A stretch of DNA of 63,975 nucleotides, filler included, from Reclinomonas americana ATCC 50394 (GCA_048213135.1; 6 parts of 4 records of this genome joined end to end with filler, not necessarily neighbours in it); one strand, 5' to 3'. Shown: positions 1 through 23,640, counted from the whole stretch's first letter. Numbers and translations: made by a program. Notes: generated by a model from the sequence alone, not told the origin.

Positions 1-2039
1 GGTACTCCGCTGCGGTGGTCACGGAGAGTCTGTTCTTTGTGTGTGTAATGTGTATGATTTGCTCGCTCCGGATTGTCACCGCCTTGCTCTGAGACATCGT
101 TCATCCCTCGCCAGGCTGCAGCCAGCACCCCACACAGCATGCGGCAGTGAGTGAGCGATATCGCTTTGTTGATGCGTGCGGGCTTAGGAAGACCGACACG
201 GGACTCGTCCATGCGATATCGGCAGAACGGACAGTCAAGGTAGTGTCACAGATGGCGCTCCACTGCTCCGTACTCCTGTCCAGCGACGTTGCATTTCAAC
301 TACCCAACACTCTCTGCCAACGAGGACTGGCATGTCGGGCTGCTTGGATACGCAGCTGTGGCCCTGCACCCAAGAATCCAATGAGCACCGAGTCAGCGAC
401 ACCGCATCTCCTTGGATCGGCCCACAGCGAGGTTGATGAGGTACATACGACGAGCCTCAAGGAACAGGAGAGGAGCGACCAGCACAGCAGCACAGCAATG
501 GAAGAGGCAGCTGCGTCGTGAGGCTCGCCTCCTCTCACCCAACTCACAATCAATGCCTCGTGCCATCAATCACACTCACAGAGGTCGGTGAATCGTCTCA
601 CGCATGCACTGTGAAGCACGGAACAACATGTGGTCATGTCGCATGCCTCTTGCCAGCACGCCTGTGTTCTGATCACACGCAGAATTGAGTTAGTCAATCT
701 CCAAGTCTCACCAACTTACTCCTCAACGCAGATACAGAATGTGCACGCACCATGTGCTATGGCGCCAGCCTCGCACGTGCCTGCAGTCCTCCATGGCCAT
801 CACCATGGTCGCTCGGCAGTGCCAGCAACAGCCAAGGTGCTCATATCATCGATCCGCTCCGACTTGCCAGCCGGGATTGAAAACGATCCACCGACCAGGC
901 CATCCATTGCACATCACGTCACGCACATCCACCCAGCCACACACTCCATGATACGCACGGCCTGCATAATTGAGGTGAGTGGGAGGGAAGGAGGAAAAGC
1001 GAGATCACGAAGAACAAGTCCACACACCTGCTTCGTGCATGGTGGGATGCGGGTGGGGAGCCGACTGAGTGAGGTGACAGCCGGCAGCGGGCGATGCACA
1101 GCACGCCTGCAACCATAACGGAACAACGAGGGGGACCTTCCCCTAAGGTGCCTGCATGTCGGTACACTGTGAGCGAATGAAATGAGGAGGGAGAGAGATA
1201 TCTGCAGCTGCTCTGTCTCACTGAAAAACACACCGATCAGCACCTGATACCAAAACGCGTTTGGTCAAGAGGCAAGGCGAGGGATGATTCAGCACACACA
1301 TCCATCCTGCAAAGGAGAGGGAGAGAGAGAGAGAGAGCGAGCAGAGTCAGTATGCAGTCAGGCCATCTCACACACTTCGGCATCGAGAAGCTCACCATGA
1401 TGGACTGGCAGGATGGCAATCGTAACACGGTGAGCGGACCAGCAGGTCGACCTCGAGCTTGTGCGGCAAGGAGGGGTGGATGACTGGGGAATCAGATGAG
1501 CGCACAAAGGCAGGGAGATGGCGGAGAAAAAGATAGACTCTGCAGGAGGCAGGAAAAAGGGAGCCGCAAGGCATGCATTCTTCAGAACGAAAGGAGAATG
1601 TCCGCGACGCACAGGCACAATGGGAAGCAGGCAGTGATGCCAAAGTGGTGCCCAAATCAAGACGCGAGGAAACAACCATAGTTGACTCGCTCTCCTGAGG
1701 CGCATACATGCACGATGAAAGGTGCACGCACAACAGACACCACAAAGAGACAGAAAGACAAATCAGCTTCCAAAATGGTTCTTCTCGCTCGCACACACAA
1801 ATGGAGGTGAGAAAGAGACACACATACAGAGGGAGACATGCTTCACGCCCGCACAATCACATTCACACGACAGGGCAACAAGCACGGGAGAACAATTCTT
1901 CATAAACAAACTCTCTCTCTTCCTCTGTCATTCTCTCTCCCCAACCTCCATCCCGCATGTTCACCCACTCTTCCTCGCAAGACACGAAAAACAACTCACA
2001 ATCACCAGCAGCCACCTTCCCTTCCTTCGACTCACCAAC

Positions 2040-4085
2040 TCAGCACCGGAAAAGGACGACCTCGGCATCCTCGACGATGAAACAGCGCAGAACCAGCTCG
2101 GCAAGACATCGTGAATCTACTTCCTCCTCGTCCTCCTGCATCTCCTGCACAGCATGCATGGCCGAGCGCGCGGCGTCGAGTTCGAGACGAGCGAGGCCAC
2201 GCGGCGTGGACCACACTCGCACCGTCCTGTCGTACCCACCCGCACTCACAATGTGCTGACCATCGGGAGAGACGGCCACGGACGAAACCCATCCAGTGTG
2301 TCCCTCCAACTGTCGTACTTCCTCGCCACTCACCAGAGACCACATCCGCACTGTGCTGTCCTCGCTCCCACTCACAATATGCTGACCGCTGGGAGTAACA
2401 GCGACGGCGCGCACCCTTCCAGTGTGTCCCTCCAATCGTCGCACTTGGTCTCCACTTATCNNNNNNNNNNNNNNNNNNNNNNNNNNNNNNNNNNNNNNNN
2501 NNNNNNNNNNNNNNNNNNNNNNNNNNNNNNNNNNNNNNNNNNNNNNNNNNNNNNNNNNNNNNNNNNNNNNNNNNNNNNNNNNNNNNNNNNNNNNNNNNNN
2601 NNNNNNNNNNNNNNNNNNNNNNNNNNNNNNNNNNNNNNNNNNNNNNNNNNNNNNNNNNNNNNNNNNNNNNNNNNNNNNNNNNNNNNNNNNNNNNNNNNNN
2701 NNNNNNNNNNNNNNNNNNNNNNNNNNNNNNNNNNNNNNNNNNNNNNNNNNNNNNNNNNNNNNNNNNNNNNNNNNNNNNNNNNNNNNNNNNNNNNNNNNNN
2801 NNNNNNNNNNNNNNNNNNNNNNNNNNNNNNNNNNNNNNNNNNNNNNNNNNNNNNNNNNNNNNNNNNNNNNNNNNNNNNNNNNNNNNNNNNNNNNNNNNNN
2901 NNNNNNNNNNNNNNNNNNNNNNNNNNNNNNNNNNNNNNNNNNNNNNNNNNNNNNNNNNNNNNNNNNNNNNNNNNNNNNNNNNNNNNNNNNGTCTGGTCGC
3001 TGGCGAGTGGGATGGAGGGTGCGACGGCTGGTGGGACACACCAGCACGGTGATGTCTGTCGCCATCACCCCTGAGGGTCATCACATCGTGAGTGGGAGCT
3101 GGGACTGCATAGTGCGGGTGTGGTCGCTGGCGAGTGGCAAGGAGGTGCGACGGATGGAAGGACACACCGACACGGTGCGGTCTGTCGCCGTCACCCCCGA
3201 TAGTCAGCATATAGTGAGTGGGAGCGGGGACTGCACCGTGCGGGTGTGGTTGCTGGCGAGCGGGGAGGAGGTGCTGCGGTTAGAGGGACATACTGGATGG
3301 GTGCAGTCTGTCGCTGTCACACCTGATGGTCAGCACATCGTAAGCGGGGGCTGGGACTCCACCGTGCGGGTATGGTCGCTNNNNNNNNNNNNNNNNNNNN
3401 NNNNNNNNNNNNNNNNNNNNNNNNNNNNNNNNNNNNNNNNNNNNNNNNNNNNNNNNNNNNNNNNNNNNNNNNNNNNNNNNNNNNNNNNNNNNNNNNNNNN
3501 NNNNNNNNNNNNNNNNNNNNNNNNNNNNNNNNNNNNNNNNNNNNNNNNNNNNNNNNNNNNNNNNNNNNNNNNNNNNNNNNNNNNNNNNNNNNNNNNNNNN
3601 NNNNNNNNNNNNNNNNNNNNNNNNNNNNNNNNNNNNNNNNNNNNNNNTCAGAGCAAGGCGGGAGAAGAAAGGCGGGAAACGGTGACAATCCGGAGCGAGC
3701 AAAATCACACACACTCACACACACACGGAGAATGGCAACCAAGGTGTGAATGTGTGCGCACTTTTGCGTGGTTGGTGTCTGTGCGTGCATTCGTGTGCTT
3801 GTGCATGTGTGTGGTTGTCGTTTGTGTGTTTGTGCATGTGCGTCTCACCACGAGTGGTCGGCACAGATCATTCAGAGTCTCCCTTCCTCAGTGAGGTCCG
3901 TCACCGTCACTCCCGATTGCCAGCACATTGTTGGTGGATGCATGGACAAGACGATTCGAGTGTGGTCTCTGGCGAGTGGCAAGGAGGTGCGACGGCTGGA
4001 GGGACACGCTGGCGGGGTGTTCTCTGTCGCCGTCACTCCTGATGGTCAGCTTATTGTCAGTGGCGGTGGAGACTGTACCGTGCTT
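2040..4085 (-). CDS. 7-blade WD40 protein, A-type paralogue, split over three contigs (2040-2460 on -, 2991-3380 and 3648-4085 flipped onto +); apparent +1 frameshift near 3018
   Basis: MATK exon at 3732-3743(+) and acceptor at 3866/3867. The pieces join base-to-base when flipped (TVL|VWSL and WSL|ISGDQ), giving 7 repeats plus the tail STPRGLARLELDAAR...VLFRC*. There is one extra G in GGGATGGAGGGTGCG relative to paralogues (error or pseudogenisation). Confidence 0.8.
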
Positions 4086-6452
4086 NNNNNNNNNNNNNNN
4101 NNNNNNNNNNNNNNNNNNNNNNNNNNNNNNNNNNNNNNNNNNNNNNNNNNNNNNNNNNNNNNNNNNNNNNNNNNNNNNNNNNNNNNNNNNNNNNNNNNNN
4201 NNNNNNNNNNNNNNNNNNNNNNNNNNNNNNNNNNNNNNNNNNNNNNNNNNNNNNNNNNNNNNNNNNNNNNNNNNNNNNNNNNNNNNNNNNNNNNNNNNNN
4301 NNNNNNNNNNNNNNNNNNNNNNNNNNNNNNNNNNNNNNNNNNNNNGGCGTCGTCCATCCCTCGCCAGGCTGCAACCAGTACCCCACACAACATGCGGTAG
4401 TGTGTGAGCGATGTGGCTTCTTTGATGAGTGTGGGAATCCGAAGACCGACATGGGACTCGTCGATGCGAAATCGGCAGAATGGACATGCGAGGTGGTGGC
4501 TCGAGGTGGTGCTCCGCTGCACCGTGCTGCTGTCCAGCGACACTCTCTTTCGACTGACCTGCATTATCTCTCAACGAGGACTGGCATGTCGGTCTGCTTG
4601 GATACGCAGCTGTGGCCCTGGTGTGCTGATGCCACAGGCACACCCGAGAATCCATGGAACGCCGAGTCTTCGAAACCTCACACCTCATTGGATCGGCCCA
4701 CAGCGAGGCTGATTAGGGGCACACGAGGATGGAACAATGAAGAAAGATAGTCACAGGGAACAGGAGAGGAGCGACCAGTACAGTAGCACGTGCACAGCGA
4801 CGGACGAGGCAGCTGCGTCGTGAGGCTCGCCTCCTCTCACCCAAGTCACAATCAATGCCTCGCGCCTTCAATCACACTCACAGTCGGCCGGTGAATCGTC
4901 TCATGCATGCACTGTGTGGCACGCAACCACGTGTCTTCGCATGCCAGTGACGAGTCCCTTGCCAGCACGCCTGTCACACAGAATTGAGTCAGTCAATCTT
5001 CAAGTCTCACCGACTTACTCCTCAACGCAGATGCAGAACACGTACGCACCAGGCCACGCGCACGTCTGCAGTCTCCCATGGCCATCACCATCATTACTTG
5101 GCGGCGACAGCAGCAACCAAGAAGCGCACATCATCGATCCGCTCCGACTTGCCAGCCGGGATTGAAAACGATCCACCGACCAGGCCACCCATCGCACAGC
5201 ACGGCAAGCATCTGTGCATCCATGGGTAGATTGCCGAGCACGCGTCTGCAGTCTTCCATGGCCACCGGTACCAGCATCATCACTCGACAGAGACGGCGGC
5301 AGCCAAGGTGCACACATCATCGATCTGCTCCGACTTGCCAGCCGGGATTGAAAACGATCCACCGACCAGGCCATCCATCGCACATCACGGCACACATGTG
5401 TACTTCCACCCAGCCACGTTATCCATGACGTGCACGGCCTGCATCATTGAGGTGAGTGGGAGGGAAGGAGGAATGAGAGATCACGAAGAACAGGGCCACA
5501 CCTGCTGAGTGCGCGGTGGGATGCGAGTGGGGAGCCGAGTGAGTGAGTTGACGGTCGACAACGGGCGATGCACAGCACGTCTGCAATCGTCACAGCCGAC
5601 GAAGAACACGCGCTTCCAAGGTGCCTGCATGACGGTGTGCTGTGAGAGATATCTGCCCTGATCTTCTCACTGAGAAACACACCGATAAGCACCTGATACC
5701 AGCACGCGGTTGGTCAAGAGACAAGCCGAGGGATGCTTCTATACACACAACCATCCCGGCAAGGGAGAGGGAGAGAAGAATCAGCATGTAGTCAGGCAAT
5801 CTCACACACTTCGGCATCGGGAAGCTCACCGTGATGGACTGGCAGGATGGCAGTTGGTGCATCTTGAGCAGACCAGAATGCTCGGCCTTGAGCGAGTGCG
5901 GAAAAGAGGGGTGGATGGCTGCGGAAGCAGATAAGCGCACAAAGGAGGGAAACGGTGGAGAAAGAGAGAGACTCTGCAAGGGAGAAAAGGGAGAGCGGAA
6001 TGACAGGCATTTTTCAGAACCGGAAGGAGAATGTCCGCGGCGCACAGGCACCATGGGAAGCAGAGCAGTGATGCCAAGGAAGTGCGCATAAGAAGACGCG
6101 AGGAAATAGACAACGGTGACTCGCTCTCCTGAGGCGCATACATGCACGACGAAAGATGCGCGCACAAGAGACATCACAACAAGACAAAAAGACAACACAG
6201 ACTCCCAAGTGATTCATCGCGCTTGAAAGAGACACGCATACAGAGAGAGACACGCTTCATGGCCACACACTCACATTCACATGACAGGGCAACAAGCACG
6301 CGAGAACAACTCTGCATCATCAACAACGATCGTTCTCTCCTCCTCTGTCGTCCTCTCTTCCCCCACCTGCACCCCCGCGCAAGACACGAAAAAACAACTC
6401 AATGACACCAGCTGCAGCAGCCACCTTCCCTCCCTCCCTTCGACTCACCGAC

Positions 6453-7606
6453 TCAGCATCGGAAAAGGACGACCTCGGCATCCTCGACGATGAAGCAGCG
6501 CAGAACCAGCTCGGGAAGGCACCGTGAATCTTGTTCCTCCTGCATCTCCTGTACAGCCCGCGTGGCCGAGCGCGCGGCGTCGAGTTCGAAGCGAGCAAGG
6601 CCGCGCGGCGTGGACCACACTCTTACGGTCTTGTCCTTGCCACCCGCGCTCACAATGTGCTGACCATCGGGAGAGACGGCCACAGACGACACCCATCCAG
6701 TGTGTTGCTCCAACTGTCGCACTTCCTCGCCACTCGCCAGAGACCATACCCGAACGGTGCTGTCTCCGTACCCGCTAACAATGTGCTCACTATCAGGGGT
6801 GACAGCGACTGACCACACCTTTTCGGTGTGTCCGTCCAGCCGTCGCACCTCCTCCCCACTTGCCAGCGACCACACTCGTACTGTGCAGTCCCAGCTCCCA
6901 CTGATAATGTGCTGACCATCGTAAGTGACGGCAACAGAGTACACCCAGTCAGTGTGTCCCTCCAACCGTCGCACTTCTTCCCCGCTCGCCAGCAACCACA
7001 CCCGCACGGTGTTGTCGAAACTGCCGCTCACAACGTGCTTACCATCGGGAGTGACGACGACAGACAACACCCAGTTAGTGTGTCCCTGCAGCCGTCGGAT
7101 ATCCTTTTCATTCGCCAGCGACCACACCCGGATGGTGCTGTCTCCGCCGCCACTCACGATGTGCTGACCATCGGGGGTGACGACGACACAATACACCCAT
7201 AAAGTGTGTCCCTCCAACCGTCGCACCTCCATCCCACTCTCCAGCAACCACACACGTAGGGTGTTGTCTGCACCTCCACTCACGATGTGCTGGCCATCAG
7301 GGGTGACGGCGACAGATTGCAACCATCCAGTGTGTCCCACCAGCCGTCGCACCTCCTTGCCACTCGCCAGAGACCACACTCGAACGGTACTGTCCATGCA
7401 TCCACCGACAATGTGCTTGCCATCGGGAGTGACGGTGACGGACCTCACTGAGGAAGGGAGACTCTGAATGATCTGTGCCGACCACTCGCGGTGAGGCGCA
7501 TGCACACAGCAACATTCGAAGACACACAAACAATAACCGCGCACATGAACAAGCACACGAATACCAACCACGCAAAGTGCGCATACATTCACACCTTTGT
7601 TGCCAT
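6453..7606 (-). CDS. 7-blade WD40 protein, A-type (exons 7595-7606, 6453-7472; 343 aa)
   Basis: ATG GCA ACA AAG|gt...cag|ATC ATT CAG. Seven repeats of the form GH-x3-V-x-SVAVTPDGQHIVSG-x2-D-x-TVRVW followed by a conserved C-terminal tail. Confidence 0.92.
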
Positions 7607-7699
7607 TCTCCGTGTGTGTGTGTGCGTGTGTGTGATGTGCTCGCTCGGGATTTGTCACCGTTTCCCGTCTTTCTTCTCCCGCCTTGCTCTGAGACGTCG

Positions 7700-9640
7700 T
7701 CCATCCCTCGCCAGGCTGCAACCAGTACCTTACACACCATACAGCAGTATGAGAGCAATGTGGCTTCTTTGATGCGTGTGGGCTTTCGAAGACCGACATG
7801 GGACTCGTCGATGGGAAATCGGCAGGTGACACAAGGTGGCGCTCCACTGCATCGCACTGCTGTCCAGCGACACTCTCTTTCGACTGACCTGCATTATCTC
7901 TCAACGAGGACTGGCATGTCGGTCTGCTTGGATACGCAGCTGTGGCCCTGCACCCGAGAATCAATTGAGCACCGAGTCAGCGACACCTCACACCTCCTTG
8001 GATCGGCCCACAGCGAGGTTGATGAGGTGCACGTCATGATGGTACGACGAAGAAGGAGAGTCACAGGGGACAGGAGAGGAGCGACCAGTACAGTAGCACG
8101 TGCACAGCGATGGACGAGGCAGCTGTGTTGTGAGACACGCCTCCTCTCACCCAAGCCCAAGTCACAATCAATGCCTCGTGCCTTCAATCATACTCACAGT
8201 CGATCGGTGCATTGTCTCATGCACGCACTGTGTGGCACGGAACCACGTGTCTTCGCATGCCAGTGACGAGTCACTTGCCAGCACGCCTGTCACACAGAAT
8301 TGAGTCAGTCAATCTCCAAGTCTCACCAACTTACTCCTCAACGCAGATACAGAACACGTACGCACCAGGCCACGCGCGCATCTGCAGTCTTCCATGGCCA
8401 TCACCATCATTACTTGGCGGCGACAGCAGCAACCAAGAAGCGCACATCATCGATTCGCTCTGACTTGCCAACCGGGATCGAGAACGATCCACCGACCAGG
8501 CCATCCATCGCACATCACGACACGCATGTGTACATCCACCCAGCCACGCTCTCCATGACGTGTACGACCTGCATAATTGAGGTGAGTGGGAGGGAAGGAG
8601 GAAAGTGAGATCACGACGAACAAGGCCACACACCTGCATCGTGTATTGGTGGGATGCGCATGCGAGTGGGGTGCCAAGTGAGTGAGGTGATGACAGCCGG
8701 CAACGGGCAATGCACAGCACGTCTGTCATCGTCACGGCCGACGGCAAGCACGTACTTCCAAAGTGTCTGCATGCCGGTGTACTGTGAGCAAAAGAATGGA
8801 GGAAGGAGAGAGATATCTGCTCTGTCACACGTGGCGAATACACCAATCAGCACCTGATACCAATCAGCACCTGATACCAACACGCGTTTGGGCAAGAAGA
8901 CAGCCGAGGGCCGGTTCTGTGATAGAGAGAGAGAGAAGAGTCAGAATGCAGTCGGGCCATCTCACGTGCACACACTTCGGTATCTAGAAGCTCACCATGA
9001 TGAACTGGCAGGATGGCAGTCGGTGCAACATGAGTAGAGAAGCATGCTCGGCCTTGAGCGTGTGCGGCAAGGAGAGGTGGATGACTGGGGAAGCAGATGG
9101 GCACACAAAGGAGAGAGATGGTGGAGAAAGATAGAGACTCTGTAAGGGACAGAGAGAGTTAGAGAGAGAGCTGCAAGACAGGCATTTTTCAGAGTCGGAA
9201 GGAGAATGTCCGCGGCGCACAGGCACAATGGGAAGCACAGCAGTGATGCCAAAGTGGTGTCAAAGCAAGATACAATGAAACAATCATCGTTGACTCGCTC
9301 TCCTGAGGCGCATACATGCACGACGAAAGATGCGCGCACAACAGACTTCACAACAAGACAAAAAAACGCAAGAGACTCCCAAGTGATTCATCGCACTTGC
9401 ACACAAATGGAGGTGAGAAAGAGACACGCATGCAGAGGGAGACATGCTTCACGCCAGCACACTCACATTCACATGAAAGGGGAACAAGCACGGGAGAGCT
9501 CCTCGTAAACAACAATCTCTGCCTTTCTCTTTCGTCTTCTCTCTTCCCCAACCTCCATCCCGCATGTTCACCAACTCTCCCTCGCAAGACACGAAAAACA
9601 ACTCACAATCACCAGCAGCCACCTTCCCTTCCTTCGACTC
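7700..9640 (-). pseudogene. Decayed multi-exon gene remnant in the long spacer (representative of 5 copies)
   Basis: Recurrent polypyrimidine-cag acceptors and gtgag/gtaag/gtgtg donors on the minus strand flank protein-like blocks (GERVTVVYFLASS.AH.GITALLP; MDGLVGGSFSIPAGKSERIDDVR; YLINLAVGRSKE). Frames are broken differently in each copy. Confidence 0.5.
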
Positions 9641-9646
9641 ACCAAC

Positions 9647-10822
9647 TCAGCACCGGAAAAGGACGACCTCGGCATCCTCGACGATGAAGCAGCGCAGCGC
9701 CAGCTCTGGAAGACATCTTGAATCTTCTTCATCCTCCTGCATTTCCTTCACAGCTCGCATGGCCGAGCGCGCGGCGTCGAGTTCGAGGCGAGCAAGGCCA
9801 CGTGGTGTGGACCACACTCGCACGGTCTCGTCATAGCCACCCGCACTCACAATGTGGAGACCATCGGGAGAGACGGCCACAGACGATACCCATTCAGTGT
9901 GTCCCTCCAACCGTCGTACTTCATCGCCACTCGCCAGAGACCACACCCTAATGGTGCTGTCTCCGCTCCCGCTCACGATATGTTGGCCGTCGGGAGTGAC
10001 GGTGACAGACGACAACCAGTCAGTGTGTCCCTCCAACTGTCGCATTAGCTGTCCACTTGCCAGTGACCATACTCGCGCTGTCTCGTCATAGCTGCCACTG
10101 ACGACGTGCTGACCATCAGGAGTGACGGCGACAGAGTATACCCCTCCGTCGTGTCCCCTCAGCCGCCGCACTTCCTCCCCACTCGCCAGCAACCACACTC
10201 GCACGGTGCTGTCTCCGCTCCCGCTAACAATGTGCTCACTATCAGGGGTGACAGCGACAGACAACACCTTATCGGCGTGTCCTTCCAGCCGTCGCACCTC
10301 CTCCCCACTCGCCAGAGACCACACTCGTATTGTGCAGTCATAGCCGCCGCTGACAATGCGCTGGCAATCGAAAGCGACGGCGACAGACATTGCCGAATTG
10401 GAGTGTCCCTTCAATCGTCGCACTTCTTCTCCACTCTCCAACGACCACACACGTACGGTACAGTCTCCACCTCCACTCACGACATGCTGGCCATCAGGGG
10501 TGATGGCGACAGACAACACCCTTCCAGAGTGTCCCTCCAGTCGTCGCACTTCTTCTCCGCTCGCCAGAGACCACACGCGAATGATTCCGTCCACACATCC
10601 ACCAACAATGTGGTTGCCGTCGGGAGTGACGGCGATGGACCTCACCACATCGAGACTCTGAATGATCTGTGCCGATCATTCGCGGTGAGACGCACACGCA
10701 GCAGCGACATTCGAAGACACGCACATGCACAAACAACTGCCGCACACACGCACGAACACACGAATGCATGCACAGACACCAACCACGCAAAAGTGCGCAC
10801 AAATTCACACCTTTGTTGCCAT
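9647..10822 (-). CDS. 7-blade WD40 protein, A-type (exons 10811-10822, 9647-10666; 343 aa)
   Basis: Same micro-exon and intron structure, 7 WD40 repeats, open frame. Confidence 0.92.
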
Positions 10823-10882
10823 TCTCCGTGCGTTGTGTGTGTGCGCGCGCGTGTGTTCGTGCGTGCGTGCGTGCGTGCGTGC

Positions 10883-10956
<74 letters not shown>

Positions 10957-11768
10957 TAAGTAAAGAGAGAGACGGAAGCACTGATTCATCGGACGGAGCA
11001 TCAACATCAACTCTCGCGCGTGTGTGCGCCTCGTGGTGCCGTCTGTGTCTCAGTGCCCCCTGTCTCTCTGCGTCCTCGTCGCGGTGCTCCCTTCTCAACC
11101 AGCAATGTGAGCGAGATGTTGCGGAATTGAATGTGCATGCATGCCTGCCGAGCCAACTCGACACGCCATGAGCATCAACTCGTCCGAGCCGCGTGTGAGT
11201 CGGGTGGAGAGGCAACAACACACGATTCTGAAAGAGAGCGAAGAGGCAGCACAGTTCGTGAGTGGGGTGCGTCACACCAGTTGTCAGGGCACACACGCAC
11301 GCGTGGGAAATGAGTGCGCAGGGCAAGCGCACTCCCTCCCCGTGGCGTGGGGTGAGAAGAGTGGCCGTCTGAATCGATGCCTAACGCGCTCTCCGTGTTC
11401 ACGCGGTGCCAGTGTGAGAGGGGGGAGGCGGGCGAAGATGCCACTTCAAAAAGCTGCAGGCTGGCATCTCCACTGCGTTCGAATGACAAAGCGACATGAG
11501 GGGTGGGTGGATGGGAGAGCGAGGACTCGCCCAACGCCGAGCAGAACGCGTGTCTATTCATTCCATGGTCTCATCTCAATCGCCCGCACTCATCCACACA
11601 CACCTCGCACCCGCATTCTCTTCTTGCAATCCCACTGCACAGCACTGTATCTGCTTTCCGGCTGCCTGCACTTGGCAAGGCAGTGGAGAAGCACGTGTGA
11701 GGCGGTGTGGCGGTCAACATGAGAGAGTCGCGCAGTGACAGCCATCAGTCATCGTACATTCATTGAGC

Positions 11769-12902
11769 TCACTCCGTCCAGCACCGTCCAGGCGCACGGC
11801 GTTCAATCATCTCTGCATCCTCCAACACGAAACACCGCAGCACAACATCGACGAGGATCCAGTCACGATCATCTTCGGCGAGAAGCTCGTTGACGGCCAA
11901 CACGGCCAGTCGTGCGGCCGCAATCTCTTGCCGCGCCAGCCCACTCGGCGAAGACCACACTCGGATCGTTTTATCCTGACTGCCACTCACGATGTGCTGG
12001 CCATCGGCAGAGACTGCAACAGACCACACCGAGCCAGTGTGCCCTTCTAAACGTCGCACTTGTTGCCCGCTCACCACCGACCACATGCGCACCGTGTTGT
12101 CCACTCCACCAATCAAAACGTGCTGGCCGTCGGGAGTGACGGCAACAGACAGCACTGCACCGTTGTGCCCCTGCACCCGTCGCACTTCTCCTCCAGTTGC
12201 CAGCGACCACATTCGTACCGTATGGTCATCGCCCCCGCTCACAACATGCTGACCGTCGGGAGAGACGGCGACAGACCACACTTTTCCAGCGTGCCCTTCC
12301 AGTCGCCGCACTTCCTTTCCACTCGCGACAGACCACACCCGAATTGTGCTGTCCCAGCTGCCACTGACAATGTGGTGACCGTCCGGCGTGATGGCGACAG
12401 AGAGCACCATGCCAGAGTGCCCCATCAACCGTCGCACAAGTGCCCCATTCGCCAGTGACCACACCCGCACTGTCTTGTCCTCACTGCCGCTCGCAACGTG
12501 CAGGCCATCGGGAGTAATGGCGACAGACAACACCCAGTCGATGTGTCCCTTCAACCGTCGCACTTCCTCTCCACTCGCCAGTGACCACACTCTCACTGTG
12601 TTATCCATACCGCCAGTCACAACGCGCTGGCCGTCAGGAGTGACAGTGACAGACATCACCCATCCAGCGTGTCCCACCAACCGCCACACCTCCTTGCCAC
12701 TCGCCAGTGACCACACTCGCACCGATCCATCATCGCCGCCGCTCACGATGCGCTGGCCATCGGGAGTGATGGCGACACATCGCACCGCGTCTGTGTGACC
12801 CCGCAAGACCTATGTCACACGATGAGACATGTACATGTACATGTATACGTAGAGCAGCCACACACGCATCCCTCGCGTGTGTGAGCGCACCTTGGTTGTC
12901 AT
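11769..12902 (-). CDS. 7-blade WD40 protein, B-type (exons 12891-12902, 11769-12809; 350 aa)
   Basis: ATG ACA ACC AAG|gt...tag|GTC TTG CGG GGT CAC. Seven repeats and a divergent tail SPSGLARQEIAAARLAV...LVDVVLRCFVLEDAEMIERRAPGRCWTE*. Confidence 0.92.
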
Positions 12903-15056
12903 TGGAACAGAAGAAGAATAAAGGACTCTAATGTCCTCTCTTTGTAGGTTCGCTTCTGTTGACTTTCTCTCTTCGGACACCTGGTCGGTACTCTACAGTG
13001 ATGGTAGTCACGAAGAGTCTATCCTCACGCGCGCGCGTGTGTGTTATGTGTGTTTGTGATTTGCTCGCTCGGGATTGTCACCGTTTCCCGCCTTTCTTCT
13101 CCCGCCTTGCACTGAGACGTCGTCCATCCCTCGCCAGGCTGCAACCAGCACCCCACACAGCATGCGGTAGTGTGGCTTTGTTGATGCTTGTGGGCTTTTG
13201 AAGACCGACATGGGACTTGTCGATGGGAAATCGGCAGAACGGACATGGAGGGTGGTGGTGGCTCGAGGTGGCGCTCCGCTGCATCGCGCTGCTGTCTGAC
13301 GACATTCTTGTTTATACTGACCTGCATTATCTCTCAACGAGGATTGGAATGTCGGGCTGCTTGGATATGCAGCTGTGGTCCAGCTGTGCTGATGCCACGG
13401 CACACCCGATCGCGAGAATCCAATGAGCAGCGAGTCAGCGACACCTCACACCTCCTTGGATCGATCCACAGCGAGGTTGATGAGGCGCACACGAGGACGG
13501 TACGATGTAGAAAAAGAGCCACACGGAACAAGAGAGGAACGGCCAGCACAGCAGCACAACGATGGAATAGACAGTCGTGTCGTGAGGCTCGCCTCCTCTC
13601 ACCCAACTCACAATCAATGCCTCGTGCCTTCAATCACACTCACATTCGGTCGGTTGAATCGTCTCATGTATGTACTGTGAGGCACAGAACCACGTGTCTT
13701 CGCATGCCAGTCACTTGCCAGCACGCCTATGTTCAGATCACACACACAGAACTGAGTCAGTCAATCTCCATGTCTCACCAACTTGCTCCTCAACGCAGAT
13801 GCAGAACACGCCCGCACCATGCGTTGCTGGCCGATCACGCGTCTGCAGTCTTCCGTGGCCACCACCATCATCACTCGGCAGAGACGGCGGCAACCAAGGC
13901 GCACACCATCGATCCGCTCCGACTTGCCAGCCGAGGATTGAAAACGATCCACCGACCAGGCCACCGGCGCACATCACGACACGCCACGCTTTCCGTGGAA
14001 TGCACGGCCTGCATAATTGAGGTGAGTGGTAGGGAAGGAGGAAAAGAGAGATCACGACGAACAGGGTCACACAACTGCTGAGTGCATGGTGGGATTCGAG
14101 TGGGGAGCCGAGTGAGTGAGGTGACGGTCGACAACGGGCAATGCACAGCACGCCTGTCATCGCCACGACATGCTTTCCATGGTCTCTGCATGCCGGTGTG
14201 CTGTGGGCAAAGAATGGAGGACGGGGAGAGAAATCTGCTCTGTCTCACTGACAAACACACCGATCAGCACCTGATACAAACACGCGTTTGTCAAGAGGCA
14301 AGCCAAGAGATGCTCACACAACCATCCTGCAAGGGAGAGAAGGAGCAGAGTCAGTATGCAGGTATGCCACCTCACACACTTCGGCATCGGGAAGCTCACC
14401 GTGATGGACTGGCAGGACGGCAATCGGAACACGGTGAGCGGACCAGCATGCTCGGCCTCGAGCGTGTGCGGCAAGGAGGGGCAGATTACTGGGGAATCAT
14501 ATAAGCGCACAACGGAGGGAGACGGCGGAGAAAGAGAGAGACTCTGCAAGGGAGAAAAAAGGGGAGAGCGGAATGACATGCATTCTTCGCAGTCGGAAGG
14601 AGAATGTCCGCAGCGCACGTGCACAATGGGAAGCAGATCTAGAGCAGTGATGCCAAAGTGGTGCACAAAAGAAGACGCGAGGAAATAGACAACGGCGATT
14701 CGCTCTCCTGCGGCACACACATGGCGACGAAAGATGCACGCACAATAAACATCACAACGAGACAGAAAGACAAAACAGACACCCAAGTGCTTCATCGCGC
14801 TTGCATACACTAGCTGAGGTGAGAAGGAGACACGCATACAGAGGGAGACACGCTTCACTACCTCTCTCTCACTCACATGATAGGGCAACAAGCACGGGAG
14901 AACAATTCATCACCATCAACAACGACCTCTCTCTCTTCCTCCTGTCATCCTCTCTTCCCCCACCTGCATCCCGCATGATCACCCACTCTCCCTCGCAGGT
15001 CACGAACAACAACTCACAATAACCAGCAGCCACCTTCCCTCTCTCAACTCACCTTC

Positions 15057-16229
15057 TCAGCATCGGAAAAGGACGACCTCGGCATCTTCGACGATGAAAC
15101 AGCGCAGAACCAGCTCGGGAAGACATCGTGAATCTTCTTCCTCCTGCATCTCCTGCACAGCCAGCATGGCCAAGCGCGCGGCGTCGAGCTCGAGACGAGC
15201 AAGGCCACGCGGTGTGGACCACACTCGCACGCTATTGTCTTGACCACCCGCACTCACAATGTGCTGACCATTGGGAGAGACGGCCACCGACGACACCCAT
15301 CCTGTGTGACCATCCAACCGCCGCACTTCCTCGCCACTTGCCAGAGACCATACCCGAACGGTGCTGTCTCCGCACCCGCTCACGATATGTTGGCCGTCGG
15401 GAGTGACGGTGACACAATACACCCATGAAGTGTGTCCCTCGAAACGTCGCACTTGGTCTCCACTCATCAGCGACCATACTCGCAGGGTGCGGTCTCCACC
15501 CCCGCTCACGATGTGCTGACCATCAGGGCTGACGGTGACACAATACACCCATCCAGTGTGTCCCCGCAGCCGTCGCACTTCCTCCCCGCTCGCCAGCAAC
15601 CACACTCGCACGGTGCTGTCTCCGCTCCCGCTAACAATGTGGTGACTATCAGGGGTGACAGCGACTGACCACACCTTATCGGCGTGTCCTTCCAGCCGTC
15701 GCACCTCCTCCCCGCTCGCCAGAGACCACACTCTCACTGTGTTATCGTAGCTGCCGCTGACAATGTGCTGGCCATCGAAGGCGACGGCGACAGACCACAC
15801 CTTATCATCGTGTCCCTCTAACCGTCGCTCTTCATCGCCACTCACCAGCGACCACACACGCACAGTACAGTCTCCACACCCACTCACTATCTGCTGGCCA
15901 TTGGGGGTGACGGCGACAGACCACACCGGACCAGTGTCTCTCTCCAGTCGTCGCTCTTCTTCTCCGCTCGCCAAAGACCACACGCGAATCGTCTTGTCCA
16001 TGCATCCACCAACAATGTGCTGGCAATCGGGAGTGACGGCGACGGACCTCACTGAGGAAGGGAGACTCTGAATGATCTGCGTCGATCATTCGCGGTGAGG
16101 CGCACACGCACAGCAACGTTGGAAGACACAAACACACTAACAACAACCACACACATGCACGAGCACACGAATGCACGCACAGACACCAACCACGCGAAAG
16201 TGCGCACACATTCACACCTTCGTTGCCAT
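15057..16229 (-). CDS. 7-blade WD40 protein, A-type (exons 16218-16229, 15057-16076; 343 aa)
   Basis: Same structure, 7 repeats, open frame. Confidence 0.92.
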
Positions 16230-18271
16230 TCTCCGTGGTGTGTTATGTGTGTGATTTGCTCGCTCGGGATTGTCATCGTTTCCCGCCTTTCTTCTCCCGC
16301 CTTGGTCTGAGACGTCCCGCATCCCTCGCCACGCTGCAACCAGTACGCCACACAGCATGCGGCAGTGTGAGCGACGTGGCTTCTTTGATGCGTGTGAGCT
16401 TTCGAAGACCGACATGGGACTCGTCTATGCGAAATTAAAATCGACAGAATGGACATGCAAGGTTACGTGGTGGTGGTGTGACGAGGTGAAGCTCCACTGC
16501 ACCGTGCTGCTGACCAGCGACACTCTCTTTTGACTGACCTGCATTATCTCTCAACGAGGACTGGCATGTCGTGCTGCTTGGATACGCAGTTGTGGCCCAG
16601 TTGTGAGAATCCATCGAGCAACCGAGTCAGCGACACCTCACACCTCGTAGGATCGGCCCACAGCAAGGTTGACGAGGTGCACGCCATGATGATACAATAA
16701 AGAAAGAGAACCACAAGGAACAAGAGAGCAGCGACCAGCATAGCAGCTCAGCGATGGAAGAGGCAGCTGTGTCGTGAGACTCGCCTCCCATCACCCAAAT
16801 CACAATCAATGCCTCGTCCCTTCAATCACACTCACAGTCAGTCGGTGAATCGTCTCATGCATGTACTGTGAGGCACGAAACCACGTGTCTTCGCATGCCA
16901 GTCACTTGCCAGCACGCCTGTGTTCAGATCACACACAGGCGGAGTCAGTCTGTCTCCCAACATGTTCCTCGAGCTCAACGCAGATGCAGAACACGCACGC
17001 ACTGTGTTGCAGGCCGAGTACGCGTCTAAAGTCACCCATGGCCATCACCATCATTACTTGGCGGCGACAGCAGCAACCAGCGTGCGCACATCATCGATCC
17101 GCTTCGACTTGCCAGCCGGGATTGAAAACGATCCACCGACCAGGCCATCCATCGCACATCACGGCACGCATGTGTACACCCACCCAGCCATGCACTCCTT
17201 GACGAGCACGGCCTGCATAATTGAGGTGAGTGGGAGAAAAAGAGGAAAGAAAGATCACGCCGAACAAGGCCACACACCTGCATCGTGCATCGGTGGCATT
17301 CAGGTGTGGAGCCGACTGAGTGAGGTGACAGCCGGCAGCGGGCGATGCACAGCACGCCTGCAATCATTACGGAACAACAACGAGGAGCACGTGCTTCCAA
17401 GGTGTCTGCATATCGGTGCGCTGTGAGCAAAAGGAATGGTAGGAAGGAGAGAGAAATCTGCTCGGTCTCACAGATGAACACACCGATCAGCATCTGGTAT
17501 CAACACGCGTTTGGGCAAGAGGCAAGGCGAGGGATGCTTCTACACATACATCCATCCTACGAGAGAGAGAGAGAGCAGAGTCAGCATGCTGGTGTGTCAC
17601 CGCACACACTTCGGTGTCGAAATGCACACCATGATGGACTGGCAGGATGGCAGTCGGAACACGGTGAGCGGACCAGCAGCTCGACCTCGAGCGTGTGCGG
17701 GAAGGAAGGGCGGATTACTGGGGAATCAGATGAGCGCACAAAGGCAGGGAGATCGCGGAGAAAGAGATGAACTCTGCAGGAGGCAGGAAAAAGAGAGCGG
17801 AATGACAGGCATTTTTCAGAACCGGAAGGAGAATGTCCGCGGCGCACAGGCACCATGGGAAGCAGAGCAGTGATGCCAAGGAGATGTGCAAAGTAAGACG
17901 CGAGGAAACAAAAATCGGTGACTCGCTCTCATGAGGCACACACATGCACGATGAAACATGCACGCACAACAGACATCACAACGAGGGGAAATGAATCACA
18001 GACTCCCAAGCGATTCTTCGAGTTTGCACACAAAATGGAGGTAAGAAAAAGGCAAGCATGCAGAGGAGACGTGCTTCACTACCTCTCTCTCACTCACATC
18101 ATAGGGCAACAAGCACAGAGAACAATTCTGCATTATCCACGTCGACTTCTCTCCTCTCGTCTGTCGTCCTCTCTTCCCCACCCGCACCCACATGATCACC
18201 CACTCTCCCTCGCAAGACGCGAAAACAACTCACGATCGCCAGCAGCCACCTTCCCTCCCTTCGACTCACAC

Positions 18272-19451
18272 TCAGCACCTGAAAAGAACAACCTCGGCAT
18301 CCTCGACGATGAAACAGCGCAGAACCAGCTCGGGAAGACATCGTGAATCTACTTCTTCCTCCTGCATCTCCTGCACCGCTCGCAGGGCCGAGCGAGCGGC
18401 GTCGAGTTCAAGGCGAGCAAGGCCACGCGGTGTAGACCACACTCTCACGGTCTTATCAAGGCCACCGGCACTCACAATGTGGAGACCATTGGGAGAGACG
18501 GCCACAGACGACACCCATCCAGTGTGTCTCTCCAACTGTCGCACTTCCTCGCCACTTGCCAGAGACCATACCCGAATGGTGCAGTCCCCACTTCCACTCG
18601 CAATATGCTGACCGTCGGGAGAGACGGCGATCGATTGTACAAATGCAGTGTGTCCCCCCAACCGTCTCACCTCCTCCCCACCTGCCAGTGACCACACTCG
18701 CACTGTGTTGTCCCTACTGCCACTCACGATGTGCTGACCATCGGGGGTGACGGCGACAGAGTATACCCAGCCAGTGTGTCCTTCCAACCGCCACACCTCT
18801 TCCCCGCTCGCCAGCAACCACACTCGCACGGTGCAGTCCCCGCTCCCGCTCACGATGTGCTGACTATCAGGGGTGACGGCGACTGACCACACATGTCCAG
18901 TGTGTCCTTCCAGCCGTCGCACCTTCTCCCCACTCACCAGAGACCACACTCGTACTGTGCAGTCCCAGCTCGCGCTAACAATGTACTGACCATCGGGGGT
19001 CACGACGACACAATACACCCATCCAGTGTGTCCCACCAGCCGTCGCACCTCCATCCCACTCTCCAGCAACCACACACGTAGGGTGTTGTCTCCACCTCCA
19101 CTCACGATGTGCTGATTATCAGGGGTGACGGCGACACAATACACCCATCCAGTGTGTCCCACCAGCCGTCGCACCTCCTTGCCACTCGCCAGTGACCACA
19201 TTCGAACGGCGCTGTCCAAGCATCCACCAACAATGTGCTTGCCGTCGGGAGTGATGGTGACGGATCCCACTACTGCGAGACTCTGAATGATCTGCCGATC
19301 ACTCGCGGTGAGACGCACACACAGCAGCGACATTCGAAGACACGCACAACAACACAAACAACAACCGCACACACGCAGAAGCACACGCCGCGAATGCACG
19401 CATAGACACCAACTACGCAAAGTGCGCATAAATTCACACCTTTGTTGTCAT
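18272..19451 (-). CDS. 7-blade WD40 protein, A-type (exons 19440-19451, 18272-19291; 343 aa)
   Basis: MTTK micro-exon, 7 repeats, conserved tail. Confidence 0.92.
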
Positions 19452-19474
19452 TCTCCGTGTGGTGTGCGTGAGAC

Positions 19475-19506
<32 letters not shown>

Positions 19507-20408
19507 TGCGTGTGTGTGTATGTATGTATGTGCGTGTGTGTGTATGTATGTATGTGCGTGTGTGTGTGTGTTTGTGTGAATAGAAGCACCAACTCTGATT
19601 CATCGGACGGAGCATCAACATCCTCCTTTCTCTCTCGCGCGCGTGCGTCTCGCGGCGCTGTTTGTGTCTCAGTGCCCCCTGTCTCTCTGCGTCCTCGTCG
19701 CGGTGCTCCATTCTCAACCTGCGATGTAAGCGAGATGTTGCGGCGTTGAATGTGCATGTGTGCATGCCGAGCCAGTTCAAACTCGACACGCCATGAGCAT
19801 CAACTCCCTCCGAGCCATGCGTGTGAGTCGGGTGGAGAGGCAACACCACACGATTCAGAAAGAGAGCGAAGAGGCAGCGCAGTTCGTGAGTGGGTGCGTC
19901 ACACCAGCTGTCGGGGCACACGCACGCGCGGGAAACGAGTGTGCTGCATGGCAAGTGCACTCCCTCCCCGTGGCGTGTGTAACGAGAAGGGTGGCCGTCT
20001 GAATCGATGCCTGGCGCGCTCTCCGTGTTCACGCACGCGGTGCCAGTGTGAGAGGGGAGAGGCGGAATGATGCCACTGGCCACTGCTTCAAAAAGCGACA
20101 GGCTGGCATCCCCGCCGCGTTCGAATGACAGGGCGACATGAGGGGTGGGTGGGTGGGAGAGCGAGGACTCGCCCAACGCCGAGCAGAACGCGTGTCTGTT
20201 CATTCCATGGTCTCATCTCAATCGCCCACACACATCCATCGTTCTCGGCATGCTCTTCTTGCAATCCCACTGCACTGCGCTGTGACGTATCTGCTTTCCG
20301 GCTCCCTCCACTTGGCAAGGCAGTGGAGAAGCACGTGTGAGGCGGTGTGGCGGTCAACAGGAGAGAGTCGCGCAGTGACAGCCATCAGTCATCGTACAAT
20401 CATTGAGC

Positions 20409-20700
20409 TCACTCCGTCCAGCACCATTCAGGCGCACGGCGTTCAATAACCGCTGCATCCTCCAGCACGAAGCACCGCAGCACAACGTCGACCAGGATCC
20501 AGTCACGATCATCTTCGTCGACAAGCACCTCGTTGACGGCCAGCACGGCGGATTGTGCGGCCGCAAGCTCATGCCGCGCGCGCCAGCCCACGCGGCGTGG
20601 ACCACACACGGATCGTTTTATCCGCACTCCACGATGTGCTGGCCATCGGGAGTAACGACGACAGAGTATACCCATCCAGTGTGTCCCCCCCAACCGTCCA
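20409..20700 (-). pseudogene. Truncated, frameshifted B-type WD40 copy (last repeat plus tail only)
   Basis: GHTGWVYSVVVTPDGQHIV, ADKTIRVWSTPRGLAR and ELAAAQSAVLAVNE...RCFVLEDAAVIERRAPEWCWTE lie in different frames. No upstream repeats or MATK exon are present. Confidence 0.85.
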
Positions 20701-22429: not shown

Positions 22430-23640
22430 TGGCGGACAAGGGGGAGAGGGGGGAGAGGGGTGCAGAGACAGGCAGAGTACAGGCAAGAGGAGGATGAAGA
22501 CGGAAGGGGAGAGCGAAGCAGAAGAGAAGGAAGAGAAAGGAGAAGAGAAGGGAGAGGCGCGAAGACGGAAGGGAAAGGGAAGACGCGAAGGAAGGGAAAG
22601 GGAAAGAGAAGGAAGAGGCAGAGACAACAATAGAGCAATGATTCAACGAGGGAGAACACGGAAGGGAAAGGGAAGACGCGAAGGAAGAGAAAGGGAAAGA
22701 GAAGAGGCAGAGTACAGGCAAGAGGAGGATGAAGACGGAGGGGGAAAAGAAGACGCGAAGGAAGAGAAGGCAGAAGAGAATGAAGAGGCAGAGACAACAA
22801 CAGAGCAATGGTTCAACGGGGGAGAAAACGGAAGGGGAAAAGAAGATGAGAAGGAAGAGAAAGCAGAAAGCAGAAGAGAATGAAGAGGCAGAGACAACAA
22901 CAGAGCGATGATTCAACGAGGGAGAACACGGAAGGGAGAGGGAAGATGCGAAAGAAGTGAAGAAAGCAGAAGGGGAAAAGAGGCAGAGCCAACAACAGAA
23001 CGGACGGAAGGGAAAGGGGAGACACGAAAGAAGGAAAAGCAGAAGAGAATGAAGAGGCAGAGACAACAGAGCGATGATTCAACGAGGATGAAAATAGATG
23101 GGAAAGAGAAGACGAGAAGAAAGAGAAAGCAGAAAGCAGAAGAGAATGAAGAGGCAGAGACAACAACAGAGCGATGATTCAATGAGGGAGAAGATGGAAG
23201 GGAAAGGGAAGAATAGAAAGTGAAAGAGAAGGAAGAGGAAGAGACAACAGAGCGATGATTCAACGAGGGTGAAGACAGAAGAGAAAGGGAAGACGCGAAG
23301 GAAGGGAAAGCAGAAAGGGAAAAGAGGCAGAGCCAACAGAGCGACTATTCAACGAGGATGAAGACGGAATGGGAAAGGGAAGACGCGAAGAAAGAGAAAA
23401 AAGAGGGGGGCGGAGGGGGAAGAGAGAATGAAGACGGAAGGGGAAAAGAAGACGCGAAAGAAGAGAAGGCAGAAGGGGAAAAGAGGCAGAGCCAACAACA
23501 GAACGATGATTCAACGAGGGTGAAGACAGAAGAGAAAGGGAAGATGCGAAGGAAGAGAAAGCAGAAGAGAAGGAAGAGGCAGAGACAACAACTGAGCGAT
23601 GATTCAACGAGAGTGGAGAGGAAAGAGAGAGAGGCGATTG
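22430..23640. repeat. GA-rich minisatellite, about 10 degenerate copies
   Basis: Core gaggcagagacaacaacagagcgatgattcaacgagg recurs throughout. Confidence 0.85.

Follow-up and report, generated by a model that had tools for sequence, protein, structure and literature searches.

The left part of a 63,975-nucleotide stretch of DNA from Reclinomonas americana ATCC 50394 (GCA_048213135.1; six parts of four records of this genome joined end to end with filler, hereafter the window) carries a series of similar WD40 genes, and the question raised by this locus is whether the genes form a diversified recognition system, as an initial annotation had proposed by analogy with fungal non-self receptors, or a family with another role. 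The locus is a tandem array of at least seven units that extends beyond the window on the left and belongs to a lineage-restricted gene family. It contains five intact genes (A–E), a gap-broken gene (G) and a 3' remnant (F), all placed on the minus strand from 2040 to 20686, which agrees with the five intact copies, one reconstructable copy and one pseudogene described at the outset (Table 1). The array is built of a unit of ~3.2 kb, copies of which are ~80% identical in nucleotides, and arrays with a 126-nt period were detected by TRF at 2994–3380, 6649–7443, 9846–10581, 11979–12722, 15217–16052 and 18469–19261. The stretch 79–2460 aligned with 13102–15468 at 80%, so the array runs past the left edge; position 1 of the window projects to ~13024, close to the position (near 12987) to which position 1 had been likened in the initial annotation, which held a leftward continuation to be probable. 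To the right of 20686 no WD40 match was found by tblastn in the window, and copy F marks the array's limit on that side.

Copy G and the left end of the array are known from a gapped assembly, in which copy G is interrupted by N runs at 2461–2990, 3381–3647 and 4086–4345, and its two plus-strand pieces are probably misoriented small contigs. Copy F matched residues 296–350 of protein C at 80% identity in tblastn, with a match to residues 281–304 in a different frame. Between copies, the nucleotide divergence of ~20%, in gene and spacer alike, is well beyond that of haplotype or assembly duplication. The proteins of A, B, D and E are just 74–82% identical to one another in amino acids and hence represent real paralogues, not assembly duplicates, and C is 60–61% identical to these four. 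Identities among the type-1 spacers were 82.6–86.8% over ten pairs with numerous indels, the spacer at the left edge being 82.6–83.5% identical to the other four, and the two type-2 spacers were 86.6% identical with patchy blocks of 60–98%. A Pfam search of the 117 spacer ORFs of at least 50 aa left 115 without a family and two with sub-threshold chance matches.

Table 1. Positions of the genes, partial copies and spacers of the WD40 array in the window
Feature	Position	Strand	Description
Spacer downstream of copy G	79-2039	-	within ~3.2 kb unit; touches left window edge
Copy G, 3' piece	2040-2460	-	stop, tail and final ~2 blades; tblastn match to D residues 208-343, 82% identity
Copy G, middle piece	2991-3380	+	~3 WD40 units; 126-nt period repeated 3.1 times in TRF; BLAST matches to unit D in reverse order; plus-strand tblastn matches
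Copy G, 5' piece	3648-4085	+	upstream region, ATG at 3732, intron and first ~1.5 blades; 86% to unit D reversed; tblastn match to D residues 2-76, 81%
Type-1 spacers	12903-15056 (example), 4348-6452, 7607-9646, 16230-18271	-	~2.0-2.2 kb
Gene A (type 1)	6453-7606	-	exon 1 7595-7606; intron 7473-7594 (122 nt); exon 2 including stop 6453-7472; 343 aa
Gene B (type 1)	9647-10822	-	exon 1 10811-10822; intron 10667-10810 (144 nt); exon 2 9647-10666; 343 aa
Type-2 spacers	10823-11768 (downstream of C), 19452-20408 (downstream of F)	-	~0.95 kb
Gene C (type 2, diverged)	11769-12902	-	exon 1 12891-12902; intron 12810-12890 (81 nt); exon 2 11769-12809; 350 aa
Gene D (type 1)	15057-16229	-	exon 1 16218-16229; intron 16077-16217 (141 nt); exon 2 15057-16076; 343 aa
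Gene E (type 1)	18272-19451	-	exon 1 19440-19451; intron 19292-19439 (148 nt); exon 2 18272-19291; 343 aa
Copy F, type-2 3' remnant	20409-20686 (also given as 20412-20686, ~275 nt)	-	partial last blade, tail and stop; frameshift; without 5' part

Each intact gene consists of a 4-codon exon 1, a GT..AG intron of 81–148 nt, seven 42-residue WD40 units and a tail of 52–60 residues, as anticipated by the annotation of a micro-exon, seven 126-nt repeats and a tail of ~55 aa. Seven R[V/M/I]W motifs per gene were spaced exactly 42 residues apart in A–E, and A, B, D and E each have one additional residue in blade 7. The pattern ATG-(G/A)CN-ACN-AAG followed by GT was found six times below position 25000, five times upstream of A–E and once at 3732 on the plus strand; the micro-exon is thus conserved ahead of every intact gene, even C with its greater divergence. 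Its splicing, as read from the sequence, would join it to a conserved acceptor and restore the frame despite the differing intron lengths (122, 144, 81, 141 and 148 nt).

The Pfam WD40 model (PF00400) matched seven stretches in four of the five proteins and six in E, with E-values of 1e-75 to 1e-84 and scores of 245–273 bits against a cut-off of 27. The best 25 of the 48–52 Pfam families matched per protein were all WD40 or beta-propeller models, and among these no non-WD40 domain was found in A–E, consistent with the claim that NACHT, kinase and other domains are absent. An AlphaFold2 model of exon 2 of gene D listed 27 strands and averaged a pLDDT of 89.5, most of the propeller blocks exceeding 90, and Foldseek aligned its propeller, and only this part, to the seven-bladed structures 5yzv and 7big with a target TM of 0.95 and 40% identity. 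From this model the proteins are predicted to adopt a closed seven-bladed propeller fold, and a short N-terminal strand, the first four codons of which lie on the micro-exon, probably closes the ring. The best protein matches were 50–56% identical across the WD part with a query coverage of ~82%, the repeats of the array being consensus-like, as in bacterial and fungal STAND or NLR-associated WD40s, and no prediction for the array genes was found in the public protein collection searched. Copies A–G thus bear out a family of stand-alone single propellers with a remnant and gene-to-gene divergence.

No part of the gene is better conserved than the C-terminal tail (52–56 aa in type 1, about 60 aa in type 2), which has ~88% nucleotide identity; blade 7 is also among the most conserved. 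When modeled alone, the tail was a two-helix hairpin with a pLDDT of 86; in the full-length model its pLDDT dropped from 72 to 37 and its helix segmentation was unlike that of the tail-only model. A Pfam scan of nine tails with E ≤ 10 detected no family, SOCS box and F-box included, apart from one chance RRM_1 match at 0.046, and a search against PDB sequences gave nothing below an E-value of 0.9, nor was a fold match found. The tail is accordingly a predicted helical hairpin that would belong to no described family. Outside the array, the tail was found in just two public proteins, each time together with a WD40 propeller: P0121, an EST product of Reclinomonas americana, and P0122, from a contig.

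Purifying selection acts on both the beta-strand scaffold and the hairpin of the paralogues. Among the six pairs of A, B, D and E, the tail had a dN/dS of 0.07–0.16 and the scaffold one of 0.23–0.39, indicating that selection keeps the ORFs open, and all indels in the coding sequences were in frame whereas spacer pairs showed 164–575 gap columns. In a simulation with 10% random substitutions, the ORF was still open in 145 of 5000 trials, a chance of ~0.03 that corresponds to ~2e-8 for five ORFs if independent. The middle blades were, at 72–76% nucleotide identity, less conserved than the introns (86–91%), the spacers (83–87%) and the tail.

Within each gene, the repeats had a mean identity of 59–62% in amino acids and 68.6% in nucleotides (63–72% aa for blades 2–6), and the highest value for any pair of repeats inside one gene was 79% aa. 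The largest threshold at which at least six repeats had all pairwise identities at or above it was 0.50–0.57 across the five genes, a value obtained from a fixed 42-column alignment as against the Needleman–Wunsch alignment of Hu et al. 2017 (PMC5587647). According to the portion of that article available to us, ‘moderately repetitive’ WD40 proteins have an internal identity of 0.4–0.7, a class into which all five proteins fall with their 0.50–0.57 and which makes up about 2% of the WD40 proteins of fungi and protists. The description of the genes as internally homogeneous was therefore overstated, their repeats being below the 85% of HET-E-type proteins. Repeat number was seven in five of the five intact genes. 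The units were mostly grouped by blade index, with the exception of A6, which grouped with B4, D4 and E4 (support 91/85 and 93/89; five genes, one genome); this grouping supports some relocation of repeat units.

Sequence entropy along the unit peaked at positions 23, 7, 5 and 25. For the WD40 unit, Wu et al. 2012 (PMC3419727), in the part of the paper at hand, provide a hotspot rule that yields positions 5, 7 and 23, and this a priori set differed in 63% of paralogue pairs compared with 24% for the remaining 39 positions, a value matched by only 333 of 100 000 random position triples. Differences between the paralogues are concentrated on R1-2, R1, D-1 and the neighboring loop positions, that is, on the propeller's top face. 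WD40 propellers usually bind their peptide or protein ligands on this face, and in many WD40 proteins the repeats differ most from one another at its positions. Of the suggestion that the genes encode variable binders, the placement of the variation was upheld, but a dN/dS clearly above 1 was not found at the variable codons: the values were 0.61–1.04 for six positions per blade (five sequences; the set was picked after the entropy had been seen), and relaxed constraint accounts for them as well as selection for diversity does.

Taken together, we favor, with a probability of roughly 0.6, a selectively maintained tandem family of adaptors in which propeller heads varied on the top face share a hairpin handle. 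The tail would serve as the common handle, docking to a shared partner or self-associating, and the diversified top faces would be the heads, each binding different ligands. Few kinds of adaptor are as common in eukaryotes as WD40 propellers. Candidate processes for the array proteins include proteostasis, the cilium or cytoskeleton, and defence.

Rather unlikely in our view is the alternative that the top face is unconstrained, the conserved function being that of the tail or of a different surface of the propeller, and that the copies, largely redundant, persist for the sake of dosage or through a slow, neutral birth-and-death process. The dN/dS of the variable codons is compatible with neutrality, conservation is highest in the tail and blade 7, and all copies have the same length and architecture; yet in all five full copies the frame is still open, the splice sites are kept and the scaffold is constrained at ~20% nucleotide divergence, the proteins are 18–26% diverged whereas pure dosage arrays are usually homogenised, and the hotspot residues are often W, Y, F, K or R rather than small fillers.

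We regard as unlikely the proposal that the array is a HET-D/HET-E-like non-self repertoire for cell-autonomous immunity or allorecognition, for which an unlinked partner would supply the signalling. Its proponents could point to the resemblance of the repeats to bacterial and fungal STAND/NLR WD40s, with a prokaryotic top fold match, to the infrequent class of internal identity, and to the tandem birth and death witnessed by remnant F. Like the HNWD/NWD proteins of Podospora anserina (HET-E and HET-D as well as HET-R), as characterized in the accessible text of Dyrka et al. 2014 (PMC4986451), the array proteins form a paralogous family of 42-residue consensus-like WD40 units with top-face variation and, as A6 suggests, some unit exchange. 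The same source gives an internal repeat identity of >85% for the Podospora proteins, however, against 59–62% (79% at most) in the array, where the repeat number is seven in all five intact genes. NACHT, NB-ARC, HET, TIR and other effector domains were found neither among the best 25 Pfam families of each protein nor in the 117 spacer ORFs, and the proteins, in place of an N-terminal effector domain, start just four codons ahead of the closing strand and blade 1. Furthermore, they carry an orphan C-terminal hairpin, the host is a protist and not a fungus, dN/dS does not clearly exceed 1, and the copies, judged by a spacer divergence of ~15%, are old and not those of a fast-turnover cluster. 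The analogy with HET-D/HET-E was consequently not sustained. Also unlikely is a NOD-free receptor repertoire of the jakobid lineage, in which the heads would be diversified by point change and blade exchange and the hairpin would plug into one signalling or effector partner, making a split counterpart, based on WD40, of NLR sensors. Nothing so far links the genes to immunity, and for this lineage-specific gene family an immune role is unsupported speculation. That the array has no function, being made of pseudogenes in decay or of one or two genes multiplied by the assembly, is highly improbable: copy G has three N gaps and two inverted fragments, F is just a remnant and the public protein collection searched gave no prediction for the genes, but the copies differ by ~20% across gene and spacer, the tail dN/dS is low, five open ORFs are not expected by chance, and a related mRNA is known from the Reclinomonas americana EST product.

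The varied adaptor family that we favor can be placed among known WD40 systems. Gcp1-3, Pex7-like WD40 proteins that co-occur with the mitochondrial T2SS in jakobids, are nearest to Pex7 in the available account of Horvathova et al. 2021 (PMC8134430), while the array proteins, compared with Gcp1-3 by description only, are nearest to consensus-like prokaryotic WD40s and WDR5. Prokaryotic repetitive WD40s (5YZV from Thermomonospora, and 2YMU) gave the best structure and sequence matches (Foldseek E-value 1e-30), and the array propellers are moderately repetitive, like the prokaryotic WD40 classes in the consulted part of Hu et al. 2017 (PMC5587647). Unlike these, the array genes are eukaryotic, with a spliceosomal-type intron and eukaryotic neighbors, and encode a single stand-alone propeller followed by a hairpin that lies outside all of the matches. 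WDR5, a conserved housekeeping gene product and an adaptor acting via its top face, is likewise a single seven-bladed propeller of similar size (Foldseek query TM 0.81, 30% identity), but the array genes are tandemly amplified, most variable on that face and extended by the hairpin. WSB1 has a WD40 propeller followed by a C-terminal SOCS box, a helical docking module; the array proteins share the order of propeller and short helical module, which by analogy may dock to a common partner, but have no SOCS box in the nine tails. To our knowledge, consensus-like WD40 repeats otherwise occur mostly in bacteria and fungi, joined to STAND ATPases or kinases; the array has a consensus-like propeller that stands alone, is tandemly amplified with a varied binding face, and bears a tail of such restricted occurrence. 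If the tail is a docking or oligomerisation module, the array would illustrate ‘one handle, many heads’ in a natural and compact form, and the family would in addition serve to mark the lineage of a protist group from which few samples exist.

We confirmed the tandem WD40 array in this gapped eukaryotic scaffold. TRF reported six arrays with a period of 126 nt, and stop-to-stop frames gave five long WD40 ORFs on the minus strand (genes A–E, each with seven 42-residue blades). The repeating unit is a gene with its flanks, about 3.2 kb long, with about 80% nucleotide identity between units. Along the minus strand the copies are ordered F-E-D-C-B-A-G and fall into type 1 (A, B, D, E and G) and type 2 (C and F). 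Copy F is a frameshifted 3′ remnant, to the right of which (beyond 20686) no WD40-like sequence was found. The three N runs within the array divide copy G into three pieces that together hold about 6.6 blades, and the middle and 5′ pieces of this copy, which lie in the orientation opposite to the rest, are most simply explained as misplaced small contigs. Since the window begins inside the spacer of a repeat unit (position 79 aligns to 13102), the array continues leftward, as the initial annotation had supposed.

Coordinates of the WD40 array and of other features in the window
Feature	Position	Strand	Description
Gene A	6453-7606	-	type 1
Gene B	9647-10822	-	type 1
Gene C	11769-12902	-	type 2
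Gene D	15057-16229	-	type 1
Gene E	18272-19451	-	type 1
Copy G	2040-4085		type 1, cut by N runs
Copy F	20412-20686		type 2, ~275 nt
~3.2 kb unit copies	79-2460; 4348-7819; 7611-10843; 12810-16500; 16234-19459		nucleotide alignment
126-nt arrays (six)	spread over 2994-19261		TRF
N runs within the array	2461-2990; 3381-3647; 4086-4345
Tracts after stops of C and F	approximately 11668-11767; 20308-20408		~100 nt
GGTGAGT after gene D	15047-15053
GA-rich repeat	22561-23628		periods 170/266 nt
GA-rich repeat	40963-41490		periods 168/178 nt
Tandem repeat	25156-26104		period 183 nt, 5.2 copies, 86% matches
AMP-binding enzyme	29862-31819	-	exons E 1e-25 and 1e-14
Inosine-uridine nucleoside hydrolase	36708-37424	+	E 1e-12
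PCI-domain protein	43387-44235	-	E 3e-16
CEP76 peptidase-like domain	50076-50879	-	E 2e-13
Paired 44-N runs	26120-26219; 33013-33112; 40362-40461; 47426-47525; 62399-62498		12 bases between runs

Protein identity was 74–82% among type 1 genes and 60–61% between type 1 and C, and spacer identity was 82.6–86.8%, a divergence far too great for haplotigs or assembly duplication to be the source of the copies. The spacing of the genes also fits a single duplication of an 8.6 kb super-unit (F-E-D = C-B-A), which would make A the partner of D, and B that of E. In protein sequence, however, A was nearest to E (81.6%) and B to D (79.5%), and the spacers gave no pattern matching the super-unit pairing; the history of the array may therefore be mosaic or shaped by gene conversion. 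Separately, the stretches directly after the stops of C and F were identical at 97 of 100 positions, with 86.6% identity over their entire spacers and 80–90% over the coding remnant; this tract may be a conserved 3′-UTR element or a recent conversion tract.

None of the five WD40 ORFs starts with an ATG close to blade 1. The sequence of gene D has an ATG and three further codons followed by GT, with a CAG acceptor 141 nt on, after which the ORF is in frame. The corresponding pattern, ATG-(G/A)CN-ACN-AAG-GT, has six matches below position 25000: upstream of all five ORFs, including that of the diverged gene C, the flanks of which are otherwise unlike those of the other copies, and once on the plus strand at 3732, inside one of the copy G fragments. 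If this exon is spliced to the conserved acceptor, the predicted protein has 343 aa in A, B, D and E (introns of 122, 144, 141 and 148 nt, respectively) and 350 aa in C (intron of 81 nt). Because the spliced frame is restored in every gene although the intron lengths are unequal modulo 3, and because the pattern is conserved in C, there is good evidence at the sequence level for a 4-codon micro-exon. In A, B and D the start codon has the context AGA-ATG-G. At the other end of the type 1 genes, a consensus splice-donor-like GGTGAGT lies 3–6 nt past the TGA stop, at the same place in A, B, D and G and in a variant form in E; it might mark a 3′-UTR intron, or may have been conserved simply through the ~85% identity of the flank.

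Mean repeat identity within genes was 59–62% at the amino acid and 68.6% at the nucleotide level, rising to 63–72% at the amino acid level for blades 2–6; the maximum for any within-gene pair was 79%. On the scale of Hu et al. (2017, PMC5587647), internal identity was 0.50–0.57, the range which that source terms moderately repetitive and reports as nearly missing from animals and plants and as making up about 2% of the WD40s of fungi and protists. Since these values are below the >85% identity given as the repeat criterion for fungal NLRs by Dyrka et al. (2014, PMC4986451), the description of the genes as internally homogeneous is only relatively true. In a maximum-likelihood tree of all 35 units most nodes were unresolved, and units grouped mostly by blade index, with strong support for blades 1 and 7 and partial grouping of blades 2, 3 and 6. 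Unit A6, however, clustered with B4, D4 and E4, at support values of 91/85 and 93/89, and no unit from A stood in the blade-6 clade; some relocation of units has thus occurred, while the number stayed fixed at seven.

Pfam WD40 matched all five proteins (E 1e-75 to 1e-84) in seven stretches in four of them and six in E, and the best 25 of the 48–52 Pfam families per protein were all WD40 or beta-propeller models. Among 117 spacer ORFs (stop-to-stop, at least 50 aa, five spacers), 115 matched nothing in Pfam at E<=0.01, and the hits of the other two, at 16.8 and 16.3 bits, fell short of their respective cut-offs (50 and 25). As far as domain models show, the proteins are therefore stand-alone propellers, as the initial annotation had it. 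An AlphaFold2 model of the exon-2 protein, built on a five-copy alignment, had a mean pLDDT of 89.5 and 27 strands, four per blade in six blades and three in the last, for which the N-terminal residues would be the obvious candidate to supply the missing closing strand. The best Foldseek matches were a prokaryotic WD40 domain (5yzv, 40% identity, target TM 0.95), designer 7-bladed propellers, 2ymu and WDR5 (30% identity), each aligned across about 284–294 columns, the propeller only. A sequence search found 3178 proteins at E<=0.001 (8000 candidates scored), and the best among the matches listed had 50–56% identity over about 82% of the query, the WD part.

The part outside the propeller is a tail of the last 52–60 residues, nearly invariant among type 1 copies. 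Its profile HMM matched only two of 1.84 billion representative proteins, P0121 (E 1e-20) and P0122 (E 4e-10), and 17 invariant columns are common to nine sequences including type 2 and these two. P0121, by its EukProt label a Reclinomonas americana EST product and the only tail relative with a named source, a jakobid, represents a related mRNA elsewhere and is 66% identical to gene D across the last blades and tail. From this single hit, the window itself may come from a jakobid or a relative of one. P0122, a 394-aa contig product, is colinear with gene C at 31% identity; its blades are degenerate and non-repetitive, and it shares the tail. In word-indexed searches, tail residues 284–339 gave 0 of 99 candidates at E<=10, and the tail profile returned P0122 alone among longer proteins. 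The tail matched no Pfam family at E<=10, apart from one chance RRM_1 hit (E 0.046) among nine tails, no PDB sequence (best E 0.91) and, usably, nothing in the ESM Atlas. A SOCS-box or BC-box reading of the tail was set aside, as it was likewise without Pfam support at that threshold. Folded alone from the nine sequences, the tail was predicted as a helix-loop-helix hairpin (pLDDT 86); in the full-length model it was helical at low confidence. Foldseek gave no match to the tail model at E<=0.001, and the 17 at E<=10 were all generic helical hairpins.

Constraint on the coding sequence was evident in Nei-Gojobori comparisons of A, B, D and E (six pairs), where dN/dS was 0.07–0.16 in the tail and 0.23–0.39 in scaffold codons. 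Length differences between coding sequences were whole codons without exception, and spacer pairs had 164–575 gap columns. When 10% change was simulated with substitutions only, 145 of 5000 trials kept the ORF open, so that five open ORFs would be unexpected without selection.

Between paralogues, variation was concentrated on the top face. Entropy over the 35 units was highest at unit positions 23, 7, 5, 25, 42, 36, 4 and 3. The hotspot rule as set out in Wu et al. (2012, PMC3419727) takes R1, flanked by V/L/I residues, R1-2, two residues ahead of it, and D-1, directly ahead of the tetrad Asp; applied here it designates positions 7, 5 and 23, a set thus defined a priori. These positions differed in 63% of type 1 same-blade paralogue pairs versus 24% at the other 39, a level reached by only 333 of 100 000 random position triples. 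At six variable positions per blade, picked after the entropies had been seen, dN was 0.51–0.77 versus 0.09–0.14 in the scaffold, and dN/dS was 0.61–1.04. Because this set is post hoc, dS is also raised there and none of the ratios clearly exceeds 1, the rates fit relaxed constraint as well as selected diversification. In 100-column windows, nucleotide conservation was 72–76% in the middle blades, below that of the introns (86–91%) and most spacer, and blade 7 with the tail was best conserved (~88%).

To the right of the array, on parts of the window that need not adjoin it in the genome, we found multi-exon genes for an AMP-binding enzyme, a nucleoside hydrolase, a PCI-domain protein and a CEP76-like domain. 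The CEP76 family is tied to centrioles and cilia, and its presence would be in keeping with a flagellate as host. Higher-order tandem repeats rich in purines (GA) lie directly right of the array and again further along, and a 183-nt tandem repeat was also found. The paired 44-N runs, several of which adjoin microsatellites, look like a convention of assembly or scaffolding rather than a biological feature.

Scaffold and orphan tail are under constraint, the top face varies, the tandemly amplified copies include a remnant, and a distant relative has ordinary repeats. Taken together, this points most readily to single-propeller adaptors, a family restricted to its lineage, in which a shared handle is combined with heads that have diversified. 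The variable top face would allow different paralogues to bind different ligands, and the conserved hairpin tail could serve docking or oligomerisation. An immune or allorecognition role is one possible use of such a handle-and-heads scheme, and in our estimate an unlikely one. The interpretation in the initial annotation is partly supported. We found no paper describing this family in the literature on WD40 repeats, NLRs, Reclinomonas americana and jakobids. The proposed likeness to the Podospora HET-D/HET-E receptors fails the defining tests of that type: whereas HET-E-type proteins combine NACHT and an effector domain, neither was present in the array genes or spacer ORFs, internal repeat conservation is below 85%, and the repeat number is fixed. 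Another candidate identity, Gcp1-3, was set aside on its description in Horvathova et al. (2021, PMC8134430), where these jakobid-restricted WD40 proteins are placed nearest to Pex7, whereas the nearest matches of the array genes are of a different kind.
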